Assembly (NCBI GenBank): GCA_041661105.1
Contig: JBAZVB010000002.1
Span: 299,865-363,864, forward strand
DNA length: 64,000 nucleotides
Direction: 5' to 3'
From: Patescibacteria group bacterium
Lineage (GTDB): Bacteria > Patescibacteriota > Patescibacteriia > 2-12-FULL-60-25
Shown: positions 9,459 through 59,065 of the stretch, one piece after another
Layout of the letters: every line of letters starts with the position of its first letter
Numbering within the stretch: the stretch's first letter is position 1
Notes under the pieces: generated by a model
Seen by the model: only the letters and a program-made list of their open reading frames with translations
Told to the model about the DNA's origin: nothing
The model's database searches: none
Position numbers and translations under genes: made by a program

Positions 9459-9572
9459 TTAAAGCAAAAAGCAAAATTCAAAGAGCAAAATGCAGGTATC
9501 GCTATGCGATTTAATATATATTTGTGCCGAAGGCCTCCTGCATTTTGAAATTTGCTTTTTGAATTTTGAATT
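9457..9572. repeat. Composite inverted-repeat element, copy 1 (AATTCAAA/GCAAAA word arms plus conserved core)
   Basis: Arms gcaaaattcaaagagcaaaatgcagg / cctgcattttgaaatttgctttttgaattttgaatt. Core ggtatcgctatgcgat-AT-rich-gccgaaggcctcc is shared with 13677, 30411 and 59077. Confidence 0.8.
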
Positions 9573-9625
9573 ATCATATTGCTTATCCGGTGTGGGAGTA
9601 TATGGGCAGTGTCAGGTCTCAAGTT

Positions 9626-12511: not shown

Positions 12512-13675
12512 ATGTTAATCGTCCTTATTTTTTTGTTGGTCTTGTCCGTTTTGGTGCTGATCCACGAATTCGGGCATTTTATTGCGGCCAGGATTTTTGG
12601 CGTCAAAGCTGATGAGTTTGGCTATGGTTTTCCGCCCCGGGTGGTCGGTATCGTTAAGGATAAGGGCAAATGGCATAAAGTCAGCGGTAAAGACGAAAAA
12701 GAATACCAGAACACAATCTGGTCTTTGAATTGGTTGCCTTTGGGTGGCTTCGTGCGGATCAAAGGTGAAAACGGGGAAGATGAGACCATAAAAGACAAAG
12801 ATGCTTTCCATGCTAAGCCCATCTGGCAGCGCATCATTATCCTGGCGGCGGGCGTGGCCATGAATTGGTTGCTGGCCTTCGTACTTTTTACCGGCATCTT
12901 TACTTTTGGAGCCACGGCCATTCTGGATGGCGTGCCAGCTGACGCTAAGATAGAAAACAGAGAGGTTAGGATCACTAATCTCGTATCGGGCGGACCAGCG
13001 GACAAAGCGGGTTTAATACCGGGCGATGCAATCATTTCCATTGCAGGAATCAAAGCCGGAGATTACGAACAAGCTAGAACGACCATCGCGGATCAAAAAG
13101 ACAAACCTTTCGAAGTTGATTACCAACGGGATGGCGAGTCTAAAAAAGTTACGGTCAATCCGATTTATCTGGAAGAAATTAAAAAATTTGGCATCGGGGT
13201 CGGCCTGGCTGACGTGGGTAAAGTTAAATTCCGTTTTGATAGGGCTTTGCTTTATGCCGGTGAGGCGGTTGTCGGTTACACCCGCGACATCGTTGTCAGT
13301 TTTGGGACTTTGATTCGCGACTTGGTTCTCTTGCGCCACGTGGAACAAGAAGTGGCTGGTCCGATCGGGATTGCGGTCATCACCGGACAGGTGGCCAAGC
13401 AGGGTATTGTGCCGCTCCTTCAGTTCGCGGCCATTCTTTCCATTAACCTGGCTGTCGTCAACTTCCTGCCGATTCCGGCCTTGGACGGTGGCCGGGTGTT
13501 TTTCCTCATCATTGAAAAGATTAGACGCAAGCCTGTGGCGCGTAGAGTCGAAGCCAGAATCCACCAAATAGCTTTTTTGACTCTAATCGTCTTGATCTTG
13601 CTAGTCACCTTGAGAGATATCGGCAAATACGGCGGAGTTATTTGGGGAGGAATTAAGGGGATGGTAGGAATATGA
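12512..13675 (+). CDS. rseP: RIP zinc metalloprotease RseP (M50 site-2 protease with PDZ domain)
   Basis: HEFGHF zinc motif, a central PDZ-like segment, and NFLPIPALDGG. Confidence 0.9.
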   Translation: MLIVLIFLLVLSVLVLIHEFGHFIAARIFGVKADEFGYGFPPRVVGIVKDKGKWHKVSGKDEKEYQNTIWSLNWLPLGGFVRIKGENGEDETIKDKDAFHAKPIWQRIIILAAGVAMNWLLAFVLFTGIFTFGATAILDGVPADAKIENREVRITNLVSGGPADKAGLIPGDAIISIAGIKAGDYEQARTTIADQKDKPFEVDYQRDGESKKVTVNPIYLEEIKKFGIGVGLADVGKVKFRFDRALLYAGEAVVGYTRDIVVSFGTLIRDLVLLRHVEQEVAGPIGIAVITGQVAKQGIVPLLQFAAILSINLAVVNFLPIPALDGGRVFFLIIEKIRRKPVARRVEARIHQIAFLTLIVLILLVTLRDIGKYGGVIWGGIKGMVGI

Positions 13676-13676
13676 T

Positions 13677-13788
13677 AATTCAAAGAGCAAAATTCAAAGA
13701 GCAAAATTTTGGTGGCCTACGGCATTCATTAAATAAATATCCCGAAGGGATACCGATATTTTGAATTTTGCTTTTTGAATTTTGAATT
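13677..13788. repeat. Composite inverted-repeat element, copy 2 (core in opposite orientation)
   Basis: Arms aattcaaagagcaaaattcaaagagcaaaatttt / gatattttgaattttgctttttgaattttgaatt. Core ggtggcctacggcat-AT-rich-atcccgaagggatacc is the reverse complement of the core in the other copies. Confidence 0.8.
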
Positions 13789-13797
13789 AATAAATTT

Positions 13798-17206: not shown

Positions 17207-19789
17207 ATGAACCTCCTAGTCTCCTACGATTGGCTGAAAGAATACGTCAGCCTTAAAGAAAAGCCCGAAGATTTCGCGGCGCGGATTTCGCTTTCTGGTC
17301 CGTCCGTGGAAAAGATTCTGCCGCTCTATTCGGAACTCGACGGGATCGTGGTCGGAGCAGTCCGGTCACTTAAGCCGCACCCCCAGGCGGATAAACTTCA
17401 GGTCGTGTCCGTCGATATAGGACGCACAGGACGCGAAGGACGTTCAGGACTCTTGTCGTTAGTCTGTGGCGGATCAAATCTTTATGTAGGACAAAAAGTC
17501 GCCGTGGCCCTTGTTGGCGCTAAAGTCAGATGGCATGGTCAAGGAGATTTGATTGAGCTTAAGCCGGCCTTAATCCGCGGCGTCAAAAGCGAGGGCATGA
17601 TTTGTGCGGCGAGTGAAATTGGTTTGGGCGAGGCTTTCCCACACGAAGAACGCGAGATTTTGGATTTGGGTAAAGAAATACCAGAGATGGACGTCGAGCC
17701 AGGCACCCCGCTATCGGATGCTTTGGGTGGCAAGGACGACGTGGCCATGGATATTGAAGTTACCAGCAACCGTCCTGATTGTATGGGTATGGTTGGCATG
17801 GCTCGCGAAGCCTCAGCGATTTTGAAACAGCCTTTTAAGTGGAAAGAGCCAAGCCTAAATTCAAAATTCAAAATTCAAAATTCAAAATCAGGACGCGGGA
17901 CGACGGGTGTGAAAGTTACCATCGACGCTAAGAAAGCTTGTTCACGCTACATTGGAGTCAGAATCGACAACGTGAAGGTCAAAAAGTCACCTTGGTGGCT
18001 CAAACGTCGCTTAATGTCGGCCGGTATCCGTCCCATTAATAATCTCGTGGATATCACAAATTACGTCATGCTCGAAACGGGTCAGCCGATGCACGTGTTC
18101 GACGCGGCTAAGCTACGTCGTCATCCTGAACTTGTTTCAGGATCTAAGACACGTAACACGGAGATGCTGAAACAAGTTCAGCATGACACACCACCGGAGA
18201 TCCGCGTGCGATTCGCACGGACGGGGGAGAGGATAATGGCTTTGGATGGTAAGACTTATCAGTTGGACGATAAGATTTTGGTGATTGCTGATGCCGAGCG
18301 TCCGGTAGCCATTGCTGGCGTGATGGGAGGAGAACAGACCGGAGCTGACGAAAAGACAACCAACATCGTGCTCGAAGCCGCGACTTTTGATCTAGTCATC
18401 GTTCGCAAAGGTTCACGCAAGATTAATTTGCAATCAGATTCGCAACTGCGTTTTGAAAAAGGTTTGTCCCAGATGGCCCCGCCTTCAGCCATGGCACGAG
18501 CGATTGAGTTGGTCTTGGAATTAGCCGGAGGTCAGATTGTCGGCACACCGGCTGACGTTATGCCCGCCGCCTATAAACCTCTGTCATATTCCGTCACGAC
18601 GGATGAGGTAAATGGTTTGATTGGCATTGAAGTTAAAAAGACTGAAATGGTGGATGTGCTCAAACGCCTGGGTTTTGGAGTCAAAGTTACCGGTAAACAC
18701 ATCAAAGCCACTGTCCCATGGTGGCGTGATCATGATATTGAAATGGGACGCGACTTGGTTGAGGAAATCGCCCGCGTCATTGGTTATGCCAGCATCCCTT
18801 CGATTGTGCCTATCGCCGTCGCGCCTCGTGAGACTGATCCGGTTATCAAATGGGAGGATCGCCTCAAAGACGTGGCTAAAGCGGCGGGTTACACGGAGGT
18901 TTTTAGTTGGTCTTTCGTGTCAGAGGATTTGTTGCGCAAGGCCAGTTATGACCCGGCTCATCTTTTGCGCCTCCAGAATCCTTTGTCTAACGACTGGCTG
19001 GTCATGCGTCCCTCGCTTATGCCTGGCATGTTGCAGGCTGTGGCGGATAATCAAGAACGCGAAAAAGATCTTCATCTTTTTGAGTGCTCAAATGTTTACA
19101 TTCGTCCCACGTCCCACGTCCCACGTCCTACGGAAAGGACGATCAGGACGAAGGACGATCAGGACGTTTGGTCTGACCTGCCGGATGAAGTGCCGGAGTT
19201 TACGCTCATGATTCGCGAGGCGGATAATCAAGATCCTTGGCGCAAGGCCAAAGGATTCGTTGAACATCTTTTCGAGGAGTATGGCATCGGCGAGGTGCAT
19301 TGGAAGCGCGTCTCACGTGACGCGGTTTGGCATCCCGGTCGCACGGCCCAGGCTTTTAGCGGCGATAAGCTGTTGGCCACGGTCGGGGAGATCGGTCCGC
19401 AGATGTCCGAAGCCTTTAAGATCAAGGGTCGAGTTGGCGCAGCCGTGGTTAACATTCGTGAGTTCATCTCTTTTGCCAAAATTTCCAAAGCCTATGTGCC
19501 GCCCACGCCTTATCCCGAGGCTAAGCGCGATTTAGCATTGGTTGTCGATCGGAATGTCGATTATCGTGAACTGGAATTGGCCATCCTCCGCGCGGATGAA
19601 CGTATCTTAAAAGTTGAATGGTTTGATACTTACGCCGGCAAGGGGATTGTTGACAACAAAAAATCAGTGGCCATGCATTTGACTATCGGCTCACGCGAAA
19701 AAACCCTCGAAAGCTCTGAGGTGGATGGCGTGCTGGAAGATGCGGTTTTAGCTTGTAAGGAAAAGTTCAAGGCAGAAGTAAGAGGATAA
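17207..19789 (+). CDS. pheT: Phenylalanine--tRNA ligase beta subunit, carrying several repeat-derived in-frame inserts
   Basis: N-terminal MNLLVSYDWLKEYV, tRNA-binding domain, and B3/4, B5 and anticodon-binding-like regions. At 860 aa it is longer than I would expect for PheT, which I attribute to the inserts. Confidence 0.95.
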   Translation: MNLLVSYDWLKEYVSLKEKPEDFAARISLSGPSVEKILPLYSELDGIVVGAVRSLKPHPQADKLQVVSVDIGRTGREGRSGLLSLVCGGSNLYVGQKVAVALVGAKVRWHGQGDLIELKPALIRGVKSEGMICAASEIGLGEAFPHEEREILDLGKEIPEMDVEPGTPLSDALGGKDDVAMDIEVTSNRPDCMGMVGMAREASAILKQPFKWKEPSLNSKFKIQNSKSGRGTTGVKVTIDAKKACSRYIGVRIDNVKVKKSPWWLKRRLMSAGIRPINNLVDITNYVMLETGQPMHVFDAAKLRRHPELVSGSKTRNTEMLKQVQHDTPPEIRVRFARTGERIMALDGKTYQLDDKILVIADAERPVAIAGVMGGEQTGADEKTTNIVLEAATFDLVIVRKGSRKINLQSDSQLRFEKGLSQMAPPSAMARAIELVLELAGGQIVGTPADVMPAAYKPLSYSVTTDEVNGLIGIEVKKTEMVDVLKRLGFGVKVTGKHIKATVPWWRDHDIEMGRDLVEEIARVIGYASIPSIVPIAVAPRETDPVIKWEDRLKDVAKAAGYTEVFSWSFVSEDLLRKASYDPAHLLRLQNPLSNDWLVMRPSLMPGMLQAVADNQEREKDLHLFECSNVYIRPTSHVPRPTERTIRTKDDQDVWSDLPDEVPEFTLMIREADNQDPWRKAKGFVEHLFEEYGIGEVHWKRVSRDAVWHPGRTAQAFSGDKLLATVGEIGPQMSEAFKIKGRVGAAVVNIREFISFAKISKAYVPPTPYPEAKRDLALVVDRNVDYRELELAILRADERILKVEWFDTYAGKGIVDNKKSVAMHLTIGSREKTLESSEVDGVLEDAVLACKEKFKAEVRG
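18120..18187. repeat. Full gtcatcctgaac...ttcagcatgac element inside the pheT reading frame
   Basis: gtcatcctgaacttgtttcaggatc...gagatgctgaaacaagttcagcatgac, translated in frame as HPELVSGSKTRNTEMLKQVQHD. Confidence 0.85.
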
Positions 19790-28850: not shown

Positions 28851-30200
28851 ATGGAGGAAGGCATGAAAAAGATTCATGACGTTTCAAAACAGGGTGCACA
28901 TTCCAAGGCTCACAAGTGTCCCAAGGCCAAGGAGTTGCTTGGACCGCCGGTGGACGTTTGGTCTGTTGAAGACGCCCAAACCACGGAAGATGTGATTCTG
29001 CATTGCATGCCCGCGTTTGGCGCAGCCTACGTCCGGCGTATCTACCAGATCCTGGACTTGGCCATTGGTCGGGGCGTGCCGCTCATCATGGCCGTGGCCG
29101 GACCGGTCACCGTGTCCAACCAACACCGCGCCTGGCTCATCCCTTTGCTCAAGACCGGCTGGGTGGCATACCTGACCATCACGGACGCGGCTTGTTACCA
29201 CGACGGCCACGACTCGCTTGAGAAATTCGATGCGCGCCCCTTGCGCGAGGCGGCTATCGAAGGCAGAGATCTGGAGTACGGGGAGAACAAGGTAATCCGT
29301 ATCACGGACGTGGGCATGAAAGAAGAGATCTTGTATAAGCAGGATCAATTCTTCACGGCTCTACTTCGGCAACCTGAGTTTCAACGCAAGATGACCGGCA
29401 CTGAATTTCGCCATTTGGTAGGCAAGTACTACCAAGCCCAGGAAAAGGCACATGGCGTCAAGCCGGGGCTTCTTTCCACTTGCTATGACATGGGCATCCC
29501 TGTGTTCGTGGGCGCGCCCGGCGACGGGTCTGCGTATCTGAACTCGGTCAAACTCTGGGCACTTAATCGACTGGGTGTGATTAACCACAAGTTTGGGATC
29601 GATGTGCATGAAGAGGTGTTCGAGTCATGCGCCTACCACTACTACGGTTTGACTCATGACCCCAAGCAGTTGGCCATCCTGATTTTGGGTGGCGGCGTGC
29701 CCAAGAACTTCAGCCTCCAGCCCGAACCCACGCTCTCGCAGATCTTCATGCTGGATGATATCCGCGGATACGACTATGACGTGCAGATCGTGAGCTCGCC
29801 GGTTACGGACGGATCGCTTTCCGGTTGCAAAGGGCAGGAAGCGCACACTTGGGGCAAAGTCTCGCGCGAGGCGTTGGCTTCAACCGTGGAGAGTGTGCAA
29901 GCGGATTACTCCATGATTATGCCCTTCATCGTCCGAGCCCTGCTCGAAAAACGCAAGCGCGTGATCAAGCAATACGACGCCAAAAAAGTACATTTCCCTG
30001 TGCGCGAGCAGGACAAGGGTTACTTGCGAGGTTACGCCACGCATCCATACCGATTGTACGATCTGCGCGAAGAACTCAGATCCGCGCTCTTGTGCAAGAT
30101 CAATGAGCCCAAACAGCTCAAGCGCCTCAAGAGTACATTCAACTTCCCGCTTCAGTTCCTGGCCCGCGCCAAGGGCGGAGGCATGGGGGACGACGTCTAG
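28851..30200 (+). CDS. Deoxyhypusine synthase-like protein
   Basis: LILGGGVPKNF and VTDGSLSGCKGQEAHTWGKVS resemble the DHS family NAD/spermidine-site motifs. TTGACA-17-TAGGAT promoter upstream. GC-rich. The start may be the Met at 28863. Confidence 0.65.
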   Translation: MEEGMKKIHDVSKQGAHSKAHKCPKAKELLGPPVDVWSVEDAQTTEDVILHCMPAFGAAYVRRIYQILDLAIGRGVPLIMAVAGPVTVSNQHRAWLIPLLKTGWVAYLTITDAACYHDGHDSLEKFDARPLREAAIEGRDLEYGENKVIRITDVGMKEEILYKQDQFFTALLRQPEFQRKMTGTEFRHLVGKYYQAQEKAHGVKPGLLSTCYDMGIPVFVGAPGDGSAYLNSVKLWALNRLGVINHKFGIDVHEEVFESCAYHYYGLTHDPKQLAILILGGGVPKNFSLQPEPTLSQIFMLDDIRGYDYDVQIVSSPVTDGSLSGCKGQEAHTWGKVSREALASTVESVQADYSMIMPFIVRALLEKRKRVIKQYDAKKVHFPVREQDKGYLRGYATHPYRLYDLREELRSALLCKINEPKQLKRLKSTFNFPLQFLARAKGGGMGDDV

Positions 30201-30224
30201 GCAGTCACTCGACTGTCTTTTTTT
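30201..30224 (+). terminator. Intrinsic terminator after the DHS-like gene
   Basis: cagtc-actc-gactg followed by tcttttttt. Confidence 0.5.
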
Positions 30225-30226
30225 AT

Positions 30227-30255
30227 TTGACGTTTTAAATCGATCGGTCTATTCT
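30227..30255 (+). promoter_or_regulatory. Sigma-70-type promoter of the thrS leader
   Basis: TTGACG (30227-30232), 17-nt spacer, TATTCT (30250-30255). Confidence 0.5.
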
Positions 30256-30261
30256 ATTTCT

Positions 30262-30403
30262 TGTTCCGGCTACCAACCGGATATCGGAGGAAAACTAGAT
30301 AAAAGAGCCTCGATGAAAGTCGGGGAAGGCGGGTGGAACCGCCCCACGAAGCTTTAGCGAAGTGGGGTCCCGACGAGTTAATTATTAGCTGGTCGGATTT
30401 TTA
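30262..30403 (+). promoter_or_regulatory. Candidate T-box leader (Thr-specific) with a very short specifier hairpin
   Basis: Antiterminator-like fold: A1 CGGG (30330-33), 7-nt bulge UGGAACC (30334-40), A2 GCCCCAC (30341-47), loop, GUGGGGU (30362-68), CCCG (30369-72). GGGUGGAACCGC matches the T-box consensus. Hairpin uccgg-CUACCAA-ccgga (30265-30281) presents ACC followed by A. A weak alternative hairpin cccgac...gtcgg plus a T-run lies at 30369-30403. Confidence 0.6.
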
Positions 30404-30410
30404 TATAAAT

Positions 30411-30521
30411 GCAAAATTCAAAGAGCAAAATTCAAAATGAAGGTGTCGCTTCGCGATTTAATTATAATTTTAATGCCATAGGCCACCAGCATTTTACTTT
30501 TTGAATCTTGAATTTTGAATT
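30411..30521. repeat. Composite inverted-repeat element, copy 3
   Basis: Arms gcaaaattcaaagagcaaaattcaaaatgaagg / agcattttactttttgaatcttgaattttgaatt. Core ggtgtcgcttcgcgat-AT-rich-gccataggccacc. Confidence 0.8.
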
Positions 30522-30533
30522 ATAATAAATATT

Positions 30534-32321
30534 ATGCATTCTTCATTAGAGACCACGCGTCACAGCGCAGCCCATGTCATGGCGGCCGCTATTCAAAGTT
30601 TGTTTCCCAACGCCAAGTTCGGCGTGGGGCCAGCCATCGACAATGGTTTTTACTATGACATAGATATCGGTCGCACGGTCACGCCGGAAGATTTGAAAGA
30701 TATCCAGAAAGCCATGCAAAAGCTGGCTAATAAGAAATTAGCTTTCGAGCGGCAGGAGATGAAGGCTGATGAGGCTATCGAACTTTTTGAAAAGCTTGAC
30801 CAGCCTTTTAAGGTTGAATTATTGAACGATATTAAAACTAAAGGCACAACCAAACTCTCGGCTGAAGAGGAGGGCGACGTCGATCCGGCCATGAAAGGCA
30901 AGGTTAGTATCTACAAGACGGGTGAGTTCACAGATCTCTGTCGCGGCCCTCACGTAGAAGACTCGAGCCAGATTGGAGCCTTTAAAGTCTGGAAAATGGC
31001 CGGCGCCTTTTGGAGAGGCAAAGAAACCAATCCGCAACTTCAGCGTATTTATGGTTTGTGTTTTGCGACGCAAGATGAGTTGGAGGCTTATGAGAAGATG
31101 ATGGTAGAAGCTGAAAAGCGTGACCATAAAAAATTGGGCAAGGAACTCGGTTTATTCTCTTTCTCAGACTTGGTAGGTAGCGGTCTGCCTCTCTGGTCGC
31201 CTAAGGGCACGATTTTGAGGACTTTGTTGGATGAATACGTCTGGGAACTGCGCAAAGCCAGGGGTTTTAATAAAGTTGCCATTCCTCACATCACCAAAAA
31301 AGAGCTCTACATCAAGAGCGGCCATTGGGCCAAGTTTAAGGATGAGCTTTTTAAGATCGTGACCCGTGAAAAGCACGAGTTCGCGCTCAAGCCCATGAAC
31401 TGTCCGCATCACACTCAGATTTTTGATTCTGAGATGCGGAGCTATCGCGACATGCCCCAGCGCTATGCTGAAACGACCATGTGCTATCGCGATGAGCAGA
31501 CGGGCGAACTGTCTGGCCTTTCCCGCGTTCGATGCATCACTCAGGATGATGCGCACGTTTTTTGCCGCCAGAACCAGATTGAGCAAGAGATGTTTGCCAT
31601 CTGGGATATTGTAGATGCTTTTTATGCCACCTTTGGTTTTGAGCTCAAGCTCAGGCTCTCAACGCATGATCCGGATCATTTTGAGAAATACTTGGGGACG
31701 CCGGAGGTGTGGCAAGGGGCTGAGTCTCAACTTAAGAAGTTAATCGAGAAGCGAGGAGTGGATTATGTGGAAGGCAAGGGCGAGGCGGCTATGTACGGCC
31801 CCAAACTCGACTTCATGGGCAAGGATGCTTTGGGTCGGTTGCACCAAGTGGCTACTATTCAGCTCGATTTCAACATGCCGGCTAATTTTGACCTGAATTG
31901 CGTCAATGAAAAAGGCGAAAAGGAACCGGTCGTTATGATCCATTGCGCCATTATGGGATCAATCGAGCGTTTCTTGGCGGTCTTGATCGAGCATTATGCC
32001 GGTGCTTTCCCGCTTTGGCTTTCTCCGGTCCAGGTGGCAGTCTTGCCGGTAGCTGATCGTCATAATGACGCGGCCTATGCCTTCGCGTCTAAGTTAATAG
32101 AACAGGGGATCAGGGTTGAGATTGATAATACGACTGAATCCGTTGGTAAAAAAATCCGCAACGCCGAAAAGCAAAAAACGCCTTGCATGCTGGTTTACGG
32201 TGAAAAAGAAGCTGAGGGCAAAGAACTGACAGTTCGTTGGCGTGGTCAAGCAGACCAAGAAACGCTACCTATTGCAGCGTTCCTGGAAAAAGTCTTAAAT
32301 TTAATTATAAATAGACAGTAG
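30534..32321 (+). CDS. thrS: Threonine--tRNA ligase (begins at the editing-domain HxxxH; no TGS domain)
   Basis: RHSAAHVMA editing motif, class II core, HCAIMGSIERF, and a C-terminal anticodon-binding domain. Confidence 0.95.
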   Translation: MHSSLETTRHSAAHVMAAAIQSLFPNAKFGVGPAIDNGFYYDIDIGRTVTPEDLKDIQKAMQKLANKKLAFERQEMKADEAIELFEKLDQPFKVELLNDIKTKGTTKLSAEEEGDVDPAMKGKVSIYKTGEFTDLCRGPHVEDSSQIGAFKVWKMAGAFWRGKETNPQLQRIYGLCFATQDELEAYEKMMVEAEKRDHKKLGKELGLFSFSDLVGSGLPLWSPKGTILRTLLDEYVWELRKARGFNKVAIPHITKKELYIKSGHWAKFKDELFKIVTREKHEFALKPMNCPHHTQIFDSEMRSYRDMPQRYAETTMCYRDEQTGELSGLSRVRCITQDDAHVFCRQNQIEQEMFAIWDIVDAFYATFGFELKLRLSTHDPDHFEKYLGTPEVWQGAESQLKKLIEKRGVDYVEGKGEAAMYGPKLDFMGKDALGRLHQVATIQLDFNMPANFDLNCVNEKGEKEPVVMIHCAIMGSIERFLAVLIEHYAGAFPLWLSPVQVAVLPVADRHNDAAYAFASKLIEQGIRVEIDNTTESVGKKIRNAEKQKTPCMLVYGEKEAEGKELTVRWRGQADQETLPIAAFLEKVLNLIINRQ

Positions 32322-36823: not shown

Positions 36824-37218
36824 TGGTGGAGATGGGGGGAGTTGCACCCCCGTCCGGCAACGCATGACATGACCTTCTTTCACAAGCTTGGCTTACTCGG
36901 ATACACAGGAACCGCAGCGAGCAAGCGAGGGCCGGTTCCCGGTGGCATTGGCCTTGTCGTTTCAATTGTTATGCCAACAATTGATTCCAAGCCCGGTTAA
37001 TGACAGTCATTCCAGCCCGTCGGGCCGCAAACTGGGTGACCGCAGCAGACGCTTTAAGCGAGTACTGGTTGGAGCGAAGGCATGCGGAACGCTTGCGCGA
37101 TAGCAGCCTTGGCTTTTGATAAGACGTTGGCAATTGTCTTGTTTGACACGGTTTTACGAGTCATGTCGGCTCGGCTTGCAGAACATGGAATGACGCACCG
37201 TCGAAGCTCGGCATCCCC
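36824..37218 (-). ncRNA. ssrA: tmRNA (SsrA)
   Basis: Minus strand reads 5' GGGGAUGCCGAGCUUCGACGG... to ...GGACGGGGGUGCAACUCCCCCCAUCUCCACCA 3', that is a tRNA-like acceptor/T-arm with CCA. Internal reading frame GCC AAC GUC ... GUA CUC GCU UAA. Adjacent to smpB. Confidence 0.9.
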
Positions 37219-54695: not shown

Positions 54696-54771
54696 GCCGT
54701 AGTAGCTCAGCTGGTAGAGCATCTCCATGGTAAGGAGAAGGTCTCGGGTTCAAGTCCCGACTACGGCTCCA
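54696..54771 (+). tRNA. tRNA-Thr (anticodon GGU), discriminator U73, CCA encoded
   Basis: Hand-folded cloverleaf: GCCGTAG / CTACGGC acceptor stem, anticodon loop ATGGTAA, T-loop TTCAAGT. Confidence 0.9.
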
Positions 54772-58990: not shown

Positions 58991-59065
58991 GCCCACGTAG
59001 CTCAGCGGTAGAGCAACGGTTTTGTAAACCGTAGGTCGTCGGTTCAAACCCGACCGTGGGCTCCA
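58991..59065 (+). tRNA. tRNA-Thr (anticodon UGU), discriminator U73, CCA encoded
   Basis: GCCCACG / CGTGGGC acceptor stem, anticodon loop TTTGTAA. Confidence 0.9.

Follow-up and report, generated by a model that had tools for sequence, protein, structure and literature searches.

A candidate threonine-specific T-box riboswitch with a minimal specifier hairpin upstream of thrS in a Patescibacteria group bacterium

The window, the whole stretch of 64,000 nucleotides (nt) analysed here, comes from a Patescibacteria group bacterium (GenBank assembly GCA_041661105.1, contig JBAZVB010000002.1, positions 299,865 to 363,864 of the forward strand) and contains thrS preceded by a leader with the features of a T-box riboswitch. 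The encoded threonyl-tRNA synthetase (ThrRS) displayed an editing domain, a class II core and an anticodon-binding domain; it begins at the editing domain and has no N-terminal TGS domain. A preliminary description of this DNA had listed Stem I, an antiterminator, two tRNA genes, a repeat and a TATAAT hexamer, and on rechecking each of these was found at the position given. The features of the leader and its gene are as follows.

30227..30255, plus strand: leader promoter, consisting of a -35 element TTGACG (30227-32), a 17-nt spacer and a -10 element TATTCT (30250-55)
30265..30281, plus strand: ultrashort Stem I, a 17-nt hairpin of 5 base pairs (bp), UCCGG (30265-69), loop CUACCAA (30270-76) and CCGGA (30277-81)
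30282..30307, plus strand: purine-rich linker, 26 nt, 50% A and 77% purine, ending AAAAGAG
30303-07, plus strand: RAG motif within AAAAGAG, directly 5' of Stem III, position and role after PMC11297988
30308..30325, plus strand: Stem III, CCUCGAU / GAAA / GUCGGGG, from RNAalifold on a MAFFT alignment
30330..30372, plus strand: antiterminator, made up of helix A1, a 7-nt bulge and helix A2 with a 14-nt loop
CGGG 30330-33 with CCCG 30369-72, plus strand: helix A1
30334-40, plus strand: antiterminator bulge UGGAACC, whose UGGA is predicted to pair with the tRNA 3' UCCA
GCCCCAC 30341-47 with GUGGGGU 30362-68, plus strand: helix A2
30370..30404, plus strand: intrinsic terminator, hairpin 30370-96 (CCGAC-G-AGUUAA-UUA-UUAGCU-G-GUCGG), A-UUUUU 30397-402, tail AUUUUUAU
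30534..32321, plus strand: thrS, the regulated gene, encoding a 595-amino-acid (aa) ThrRS

The upstream gene ends in its own terminator (30199-30218), 5' of the leader promoter. The predicted transcription start (~30262-63) lies 2-3 nt 5' of Stem I, and the promoter TTGACG-17-TAT(T/C)CT was kept in all close relatives, with 6-9 nt between the end of the -10 hexamer and the first pair of Stem I. This position of the promoter fixes the start so close to Stem I that no space is left for a lower stem or a K-turn, in agreement with the earlier remark that a long Stem I is lacking upstream. The 7-nt loop of Stem I presents the threonine codon ACC (30272-74) followed by a purine, A (30275), and nothing is present distal to the specifier loop; we found no long Stem I, K-turn, internal specifier loop or double T-loop platform in the leader. 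From the 5' end of the RNA to the end of the antiterminator the leader measures ~111 nt. The T-box sequence itself (30330-43; CGGGUGGAACCGCC) agrees at 12 of 14 positions with the 14-nt consensus AGGGUGGNACCGCG. Wherever Stem III is present, an AAG or GAG precedes it by 0-3 nt; in the M. tuberculosis ileS T-box this is the place of the discriminator's RAG motif (PMC11297988). A peptide-coding leader was ruled out, as the reading frames in the leader were merely short and unconserved.

The 9-mer GGTGGNACC was not significant by itself in the window (1 match against 1.29 expected). No second T-box was found in the window, where GGTGGNACC occurs once and pheS and pheT are without such a leader; the covariance model described below gave one further match, at 2205-2297 (E 0.08), which falls within a reading frame of the minus strand and was taken as chance. 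The window sequence alone is suggestive and not conclusive, and it is the relatives that settle the question. Chance does not account for the predicted composite arrangement, which recurs before thrS in relatives with compensatory changes.

A protein scan for ThrRS with one genome per species resulted in 53 loci, nearly all of them from Patescibacteria. The core GGUGGAAC(C/A) was located 93-514 nt before thrS in 38 of the 48 loci with usable upstream sequence, its ACA variant in L042 only, and in 32 of these 38 the parser placed a hairpin of 4-8 bp with ACC and then A in the loop 67-145 nt upstream of the core. Eight more leaders were added from ThrRS homologues in a large protein collection, and the same layout precedes thrS in ~46 Patescibacteria loci, Saccharibacteria included, with thrS downstream at every locus and a ThrRS identity of 60-91% in relatives with an intact switch. 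The specifier was ACC in ~44 loci and ACG, also a threonine codon, in L180/L181 and L184, which represent two lineages among the eight added leaders, and A followed the codon in every leader. Within the loop, the residue 5' of the codon varied, as did the second one 3' of it (CUACCAA, CCACCAA, ACUCACCAA, ACUAACCAC, CCUAACCAU, CGUAACGAU and others). The threonine reading frame of the loop is favoured because only AC(C/G) stays synonymous across all loci. The UGGAACC bulge was invariant, with UGGA never varying among the leaders, and CGGGTGGAACCGC was invariant in 11 relatives.

The stem of Stem I appeared as CCGG/CCGG, CUGG/CCAG, GUGG/CCAC, GCGG/CCGC, GUAG/CUAC and UGAC/GUCA, and compensatory double changes were observed in all five pairs of Stem I, 7/7 pairs of Stem III, 7/7 of A2 and two of the four pairs of A1. 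When 11 close leaders were aligned with MAFFT without regard to structure, RNAalifold predicted Stem I, Stem III, A2 and the base of the terminator, with 12 pairs preserved through changes on both sides. A covariance model comprising Stem I, Stem III, A1 and A2 was built from the 11-leader alignment and, at E<=0.05, picked out the leader of thrS at 33 loci; in the resulting 33-leader alignment 93% of cells were standard pairs and 21 of the 23 pairs had compensatory changes. The covariation score was 0.470 compared to no more than 0.105 when partners were slid by 1-3 columns, and none of 500 shuffles reached the observed values; a 26-sequence version of the same test was also run. The 33-leader alignment was fitted to the model and is hence biased towards its structure, but the slid controls together with the independent RNAalifold result argue that the covariation signal is real. 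A threonine T-box with a minimal specifier hairpin, as first proposed, is borne out by the invariant bulge, the covarying A1/A2 and Stem I and a loop that always reads AC(C/G)A, and the comparison with relatives that had been suggested as its check came out in its favour, the UGGAACC bulge and the threonine loop codon being conserved and the helices covarying.

Two threonine tRNA genes in the window, both identified by ARAGORN and Rfam, bear on the specificity of the leader.

54696..54771, plus strand: tRNA-Thr(GGU), the predicted ligand, with an anticodon complementary to ACC, U73 and an encoded CCA
58991..59065, plus strand: tRNA-Thr(UGU), with U73, which fits the UGGA bulge and pairs less well with ACC

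Both genes end ...C-U-CCA, giving a discriminator base U73 complementary to the A of UGGA, exactly as had been predicted from the bulge; the match between UGGA and U73 rests on these two genes, as the relatives' loci contain no tRNA-Thr gene. The UACCA of the loop could pair with U33-A37 of tRNA-Thr(GGU).

The preliminary description had called the expression platform unclear and the competing hairpin weak, a view that has to be given up, since the hairpin belongs to a conserved intrinsic terminator. It has a predicted free energy (dG) of -13.2 kcal/mol in the window. Among 33 leaders of relatives, the automatic parse detected a hairpin with a U-run behind it in 28, at -12 to -36 kcal/mol; in L005/L006 one was identified by eye, and on the rest the parser failed. 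The CCG that A1 has in its 3' strand is also needed for the three basal pairs of the terminator, and as this CCG is common to both structures they are mutually exclusive. In the relatives the 5' strand of the terminator starts at or inside the 3' strand of A1, with an overlap of up to 13 nt. Over the whole leader, the terminator conformer was predicted at -43.4 kcal/mol compared to -33.8 kcal/mol for the antiterminator conformer, and A1 contributes just ~1 kcal/mol beyond A2. The lower energy of the terminator conformer and the weakness of A1 indicate a default OFF state in which, as with known T-boxes, A1 has to be stabilised from outside. No Shine-Dalgarno sequence was found in or near the hairpin in the window, and the predicted expression platform is of transcriptional design.

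We consider it highly probable that the leader is a T-box riboswitch in stripped-down form, specific for threonine, through which thrS is controlled by attenuation of transcription. The predicted helices, with their covariation, can be read from the sequence and its comparison with relatives, and so can the invariant bulge and codon, the fit to the tRNA, the sharing of bases between A1 and the terminator, and where the promoter lies. By analogy with established T-boxes, such an RNA would bind tRNA, reject charged tRNA and permit read-through in the following way. Transcription would start at ~30262, and the first product would be the 5-bp hairpin with its 7-nt loop showing ACC-A, with which the anticodon of tRNA-Thr(GGU) would pair. 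The 26-nt unstructured linker would join Stem I to the discriminator, which comprises the RAG motif, Stem III and the antiterminator. If the tRNA is uncharged, its 3' UCCA would pair with UGGA and stabilise A1; the stabilised A1 would hold CCG, the terminator would lose the three basal pairs beside its U-run, and the polymerase would read into thrS. With charged tRNA, or none, the terminator (favoured by ~10 kcal/mol) would form and transcription would stop at ~30402.

Several observations weigh against this interpretation. The Rfam T-box model RF00230 gave no match in the window at its gathering threshold, a level of 93 bits which the leader does not reach, and none at that threshold in 20 relatives; at E<=10 it gave only chance matches and no T-box match in 30150-30600, and none in two Saccharibacteria loci. 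For the full leader this test was too demanding, as a long Stem I and a Stem II form part of what RF00230 looks for. When 30306-30410 was given alone, model positions 162-219 aligned to 30306-75 in the correct register, through Stem III, the AA spacer, A1, the UGGNACC bulge and A2, so that the covariance check proposed at the outset failed for the full leader and succeeded for the 3' half. This partial (5'-truncated) match was weak (15.5 bits, E 0.074), and it was not repeated in the truncated scan of the L027 discriminator from Saccharibacteria, where none was found. All sequences compared are from metagenome-assembled genomes, and the overlap of terminator and A1 is just 3 nt in the window. 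The proposed mechanism does not account for rapid capture of the tRNA by an RNA with neither an elbow platform nor Stem II. Loop-loop complexes are known between tRNAs that have complementary anticodons, and the loop C-U-ACC-A-A might fold like an anticodon loop and form such a complex with the tRNA; the minor-groove docking of Stem II might alternatively be taken over by adenines of the linker, or a protein might assist. The predicted leader also lacks both the elbow platform and the Stem II held essential for a truncated Stem I. Transcriptional T-boxes are said to need the elbow platform of a long Stem I, which catches the tRNA before the polymerase reaches the terminator, and variants with a truncated Stem I are said to work only translationally, with a scaffold of Stem II and pseudoknot (PMC7583486, PMC11297988). 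In the M. tuberculosis ileS T-box, shortening of Stem II abolished measurable tRNA binding (PMC11297988). Finally, a TATAAT (30521-26) inside the repeat between terminator and gene could give an unregulated, possibly leaderless, start of thrS; regulation is argued to persist because the switch is intact and conserved. The repeat copy concerned is the following.

30405..30530, no strand assigned: AT-rich palindromic repeat copy, a dispersed element of 126 nt between the terminator and the thrS ATG

This copy (dG -27.8 kcal/mol, z -3.1) is one of three in the window, together with 9460-9585 and 13665-13797, the latter directly before pheS. The element measures ~120 nt and is built of arms with a 7-nt period (TTCAAAA/GCAAAAT) around a centre of two small GC hairpins. 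Two copies end at the start codons of the plus-strand genes pheS and thrS, and the third overlaps position 9566, where an unnamed reading frame is called to start. The composite repeat and TATAAT previously placed between the T-box and thrS are present, but the repeat is a dispersed genomic element and not a component of the switch; it may be a miniature mobile element or a carrier of start signals. It was absent from the relatives' leaders, which bear other insertions or none. In L002, L003, L007, L016 and L183 other AT-rich repeats with a 7-nt period (TTCGTAA / AATTACG) were observed between the terminator and the thrS ATG, and each genome seems to own a repeat family just 5' of start codons. 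In the window the 7-mer of the palindromic element, as AAAATTC, recurs in four to five tandem copies within the pheT frame (17856-17886), translated ...NSKFKIQNSKS...

These features raise the alternative that the T-box is real and yet bypassed, with thrS transcribed mainly from TATAAT 30521-26, maybe as a leaderless message, and the switch reduced to a relic or a minor contributor. We regard this as improbable. The 126 nt of dispersed repeat that separate the terminator from the ATG, the TATAAT 7 nt before an ATG that has no Shine-Dalgarno sequence and the position of the other two copies at gene starts, by which the element might bring start signals, would all suit a bypass, but the promoter, four helices, bulge, codon and terminator are intact, with evident purifying selection in relatives, and close relatives with different insertions at the same place still retain the switch. 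In addition, no -35 hexamer stands at a usable spacing from the TATAAT, and the promoter scan gave only TTGAAT-16-TATTAT, whose -10 (30530-35) overlaps the start codon, so that transcripts would begin inside the thrS frame.

A translational T-box like that of actinobacterial ileS, in which the tRNA governs ribosome access and not termination, appears very unlikely, although most other T-boxes known to have an ultrashort Stem I are translational (PMC7583486) and the hairpin of L005 ends ~8 nt before the ATG. A U-run follows the competing hairpin in most relatives, and in the window the hairpin contains no Shine-Dalgarno sequence, with the ATG ~130 nt further downstream. The same gene is autoregulated in E. 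coli through the thrS operator, where a hairpin that mimics the anticodon arm of tRNA-Thr binds the synthetase, and the loop of Stem I has the 7-nt size of an anticodon loop. A ThrRS operator of this type is nonetheless hardly credible here, since the loop bears the codon (ACC/ACG) and thereby complements the anticodon instead of mimicking it, the hairpin lies ~260 nt from the ATG, and an operator would leave the invariant UGGAACC bulge, Stem III and the terminator unaccounted for.

The linker between Stem I and Stem III in the window's clade was 21-30 nt long, with 36-57% A and 62-77% purine, a predicted dG of 0 to -3 kcal/mol and no consistent pairing among 15 sequences. Linker folding of these 15 sequences found neither a Stem II nor a IIA/B-type pseudoknot in the clade. 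A hidden Stem II or pseudoknot was considered and rejected, as the UAUC/GAUA mini-stem of the window and the alternative pairing AUCGGAGG/CCUCGAU were not conserved. The Saccharibacteria leaders retain a K-turn-like base under Stem I (AAGC-AAU-GA-A ... G-GA-GCUU) and a IIA/B-type (H-type) pseudoknot with an F-box-like ACGUAA, in which a hairpin loop pairs with downstream sequence. Compensatory changes were present in 5/5 pairs of this pseudoknot in a MAFFT alignment (CAGC/GCUG, CGAC/GUCG, CAAC/GUUG, GAGC/GCUC, CGGC/GCCG). The K-turn-like base and the pseudoknot argue that the family is a genuine T-box lineage of which the window's clade is the most reduced branch. The segment GGAAAAC...AAAAGAG of the window resembles the single-stranded 3' part of the pseudoknot region in Saccharibacteria (ACGUAAAAC...AAGAG), and this likeness suggests that the pseudoknot hairpin was deleted in the window's clade.

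Some further observations were made on the same loci. The Saccharibacteria terminators of L026, L036, L044, L048 and L050 share a loop motif GCGAGAGU (GCGAGAAU in L044) that would not be expected of a simple terminator. A tRNA-Val(GAC) gene is conserved near the thrS leader in Saccharibacteria (L017-L050), on either strand and in most cases ~500-2000 nt upstream. Two tandem T-box-like cores with UGGU and UGGA and no clear Stem I precede thrS in L016 (2214-2300), a record labelled Gammaproteobacteria with a Patescibacteria-type ThrRS. In L177 (1149-1304) and L180 (1213-1379) the publicly annotated thrS reaches upstream across the leader, resulting in proteins of 634 and 658 aa compared to ~595, so that the T-box is annotated there as coding sequence. 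A metagenome scan for CGGGTGGNACCGC...CCCGAC returned no useful loci, the matches listed being GC-rich coding DNA; among those listed (L054-L173, disregarded) only L085 and L135 resemble ordinary T-boxes. The gene upstream of the leader (28851-30200) encodes a deoxyhypusine-synthase-like protein (Pfam PF01916, E 2e-34), a family best known from archaea and eukaryotes. A transfer-messenger RNA on the minus strand (36824-37218) has a long predicted tag peptide, ANVLSKAKAAIAQAFRMPSLQPVLA.

Patescibacteria and Saccharibacteria are reduced-genome episymbionts in which, to our knowledge, almost no gene regulation is known. T-boxes are a model system for RNA-RNA recognition, with an architecture studied in structural detail. 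If the proposed reading is correct, two general rules would fall, namely that transcriptional T-boxes need a Stem I platform and that a truncated Stem I cannot do without Stem II. T-boxes would moreover be established as thrS regulators throughout the candidate phyla radiation, where very few regulators are known, and would extend to Patescibacteria and Saccharibacteria, in which standard annotation would overlook them (Rfam is blind to them and some gene calls run through the leader). The RNA would offer a natural minimal construct for testing what tRNA sensing requires, and a switch of ~110-140 nt may suit engineering. Full-text searches, in which the coverage of journals is incomplete, found no literature linking T-boxes with Patescibacteria, Saccharibacteria or the candidate phyla radiation. 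Surveys have placed T-boxes in Firmicutes, Actinobacteria, Chloroflexi, Deinococcus-Thermus and a few delta-proteobacteria (PMC2494555), and TBDB looked for forms with a truncated Stem I in Actinobacteria and Rfam hits only (PMC7778990).

Compared to the canonical transcriptional T-box (RF00230; B. subtilis tyrS and thrS), the window RNA shares the T-box sequence, the antiterminator with its 7-nt UGGNACC bulge, Stem III, the RAG motif, the competing intrinsic terminator, a codon plus purine matching the synthetase and a UGGN matching the discriminator base. It differs in the predicted lack of a long Stem I, K-turn, S-turn loop, elbow platform, Stem II and IIA/B, in a length of ~111 nt compared to the ~250 nt of a generic T-box (PMC2494555), in a score far under the Rfam threshold and in its origin from Patescibacteria and not Firmicutes. 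With the translational ileS T-boxes of Actinobacteria (Mycobacterium; TBDB class II) it has in common a short Stem I with the specifier in the terminal loop, no elbow contact and the same discriminator domain. The ileS RNAs rely on Stem II and a IIA/B-linker pseudoknot, whereas the window's clade appears to have neither, and they act by Shine-Dalgarno sequestration, serve another amino acid and occur in another phylum; the M. tuberculosis ileS construct measures 166 nt through the antisequestrator. The likeness to actinobacterial ileS drawn in the preliminary description therefore holds for Stem I, while it breaks down at the missing Stem II and pseudoknot and at the terminator that takes the place of sequestration.

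The glyQS-type T-box is, like the window RNA, transcriptional and without Stem II or IIA/B, with a single-stranded linker between Stem I and Stem III; Stem II and IIA/B are said to be lacking in glycine T-boxes only (PMC11297988). In contrast to the window RNA, which would have lost both, glyQS has a long Stem I and an elbow platform, the latter being needed for rapid tRNA capture and a stable complex (PMC7583486). The thrS T-box of Saccharibacteria shares with the window RNA the specifier loop ACUCACCAA, the UGGAACC bulge, the terminator and the regulated gene, and differs by its K-turn-like base and pseudoknot, in place of which the window's clade has a short purine-rich linker. As predicted, the window RNA joins the ultrashort Stem I of Actinobacteria and the Stem II-less linker of glyQS to a terminator, a combination that reviews deny to transcriptional T-boxes. 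We see an even chance that it is the smallest natural T-box yet (~111 nt), one in which a co-transcriptional decision would be made by two tRNA contacts only, a 5' codon hairpin and an NCCA-binding discriminator, without an elbow platform, K-turn, Stem II or pseudoknot.

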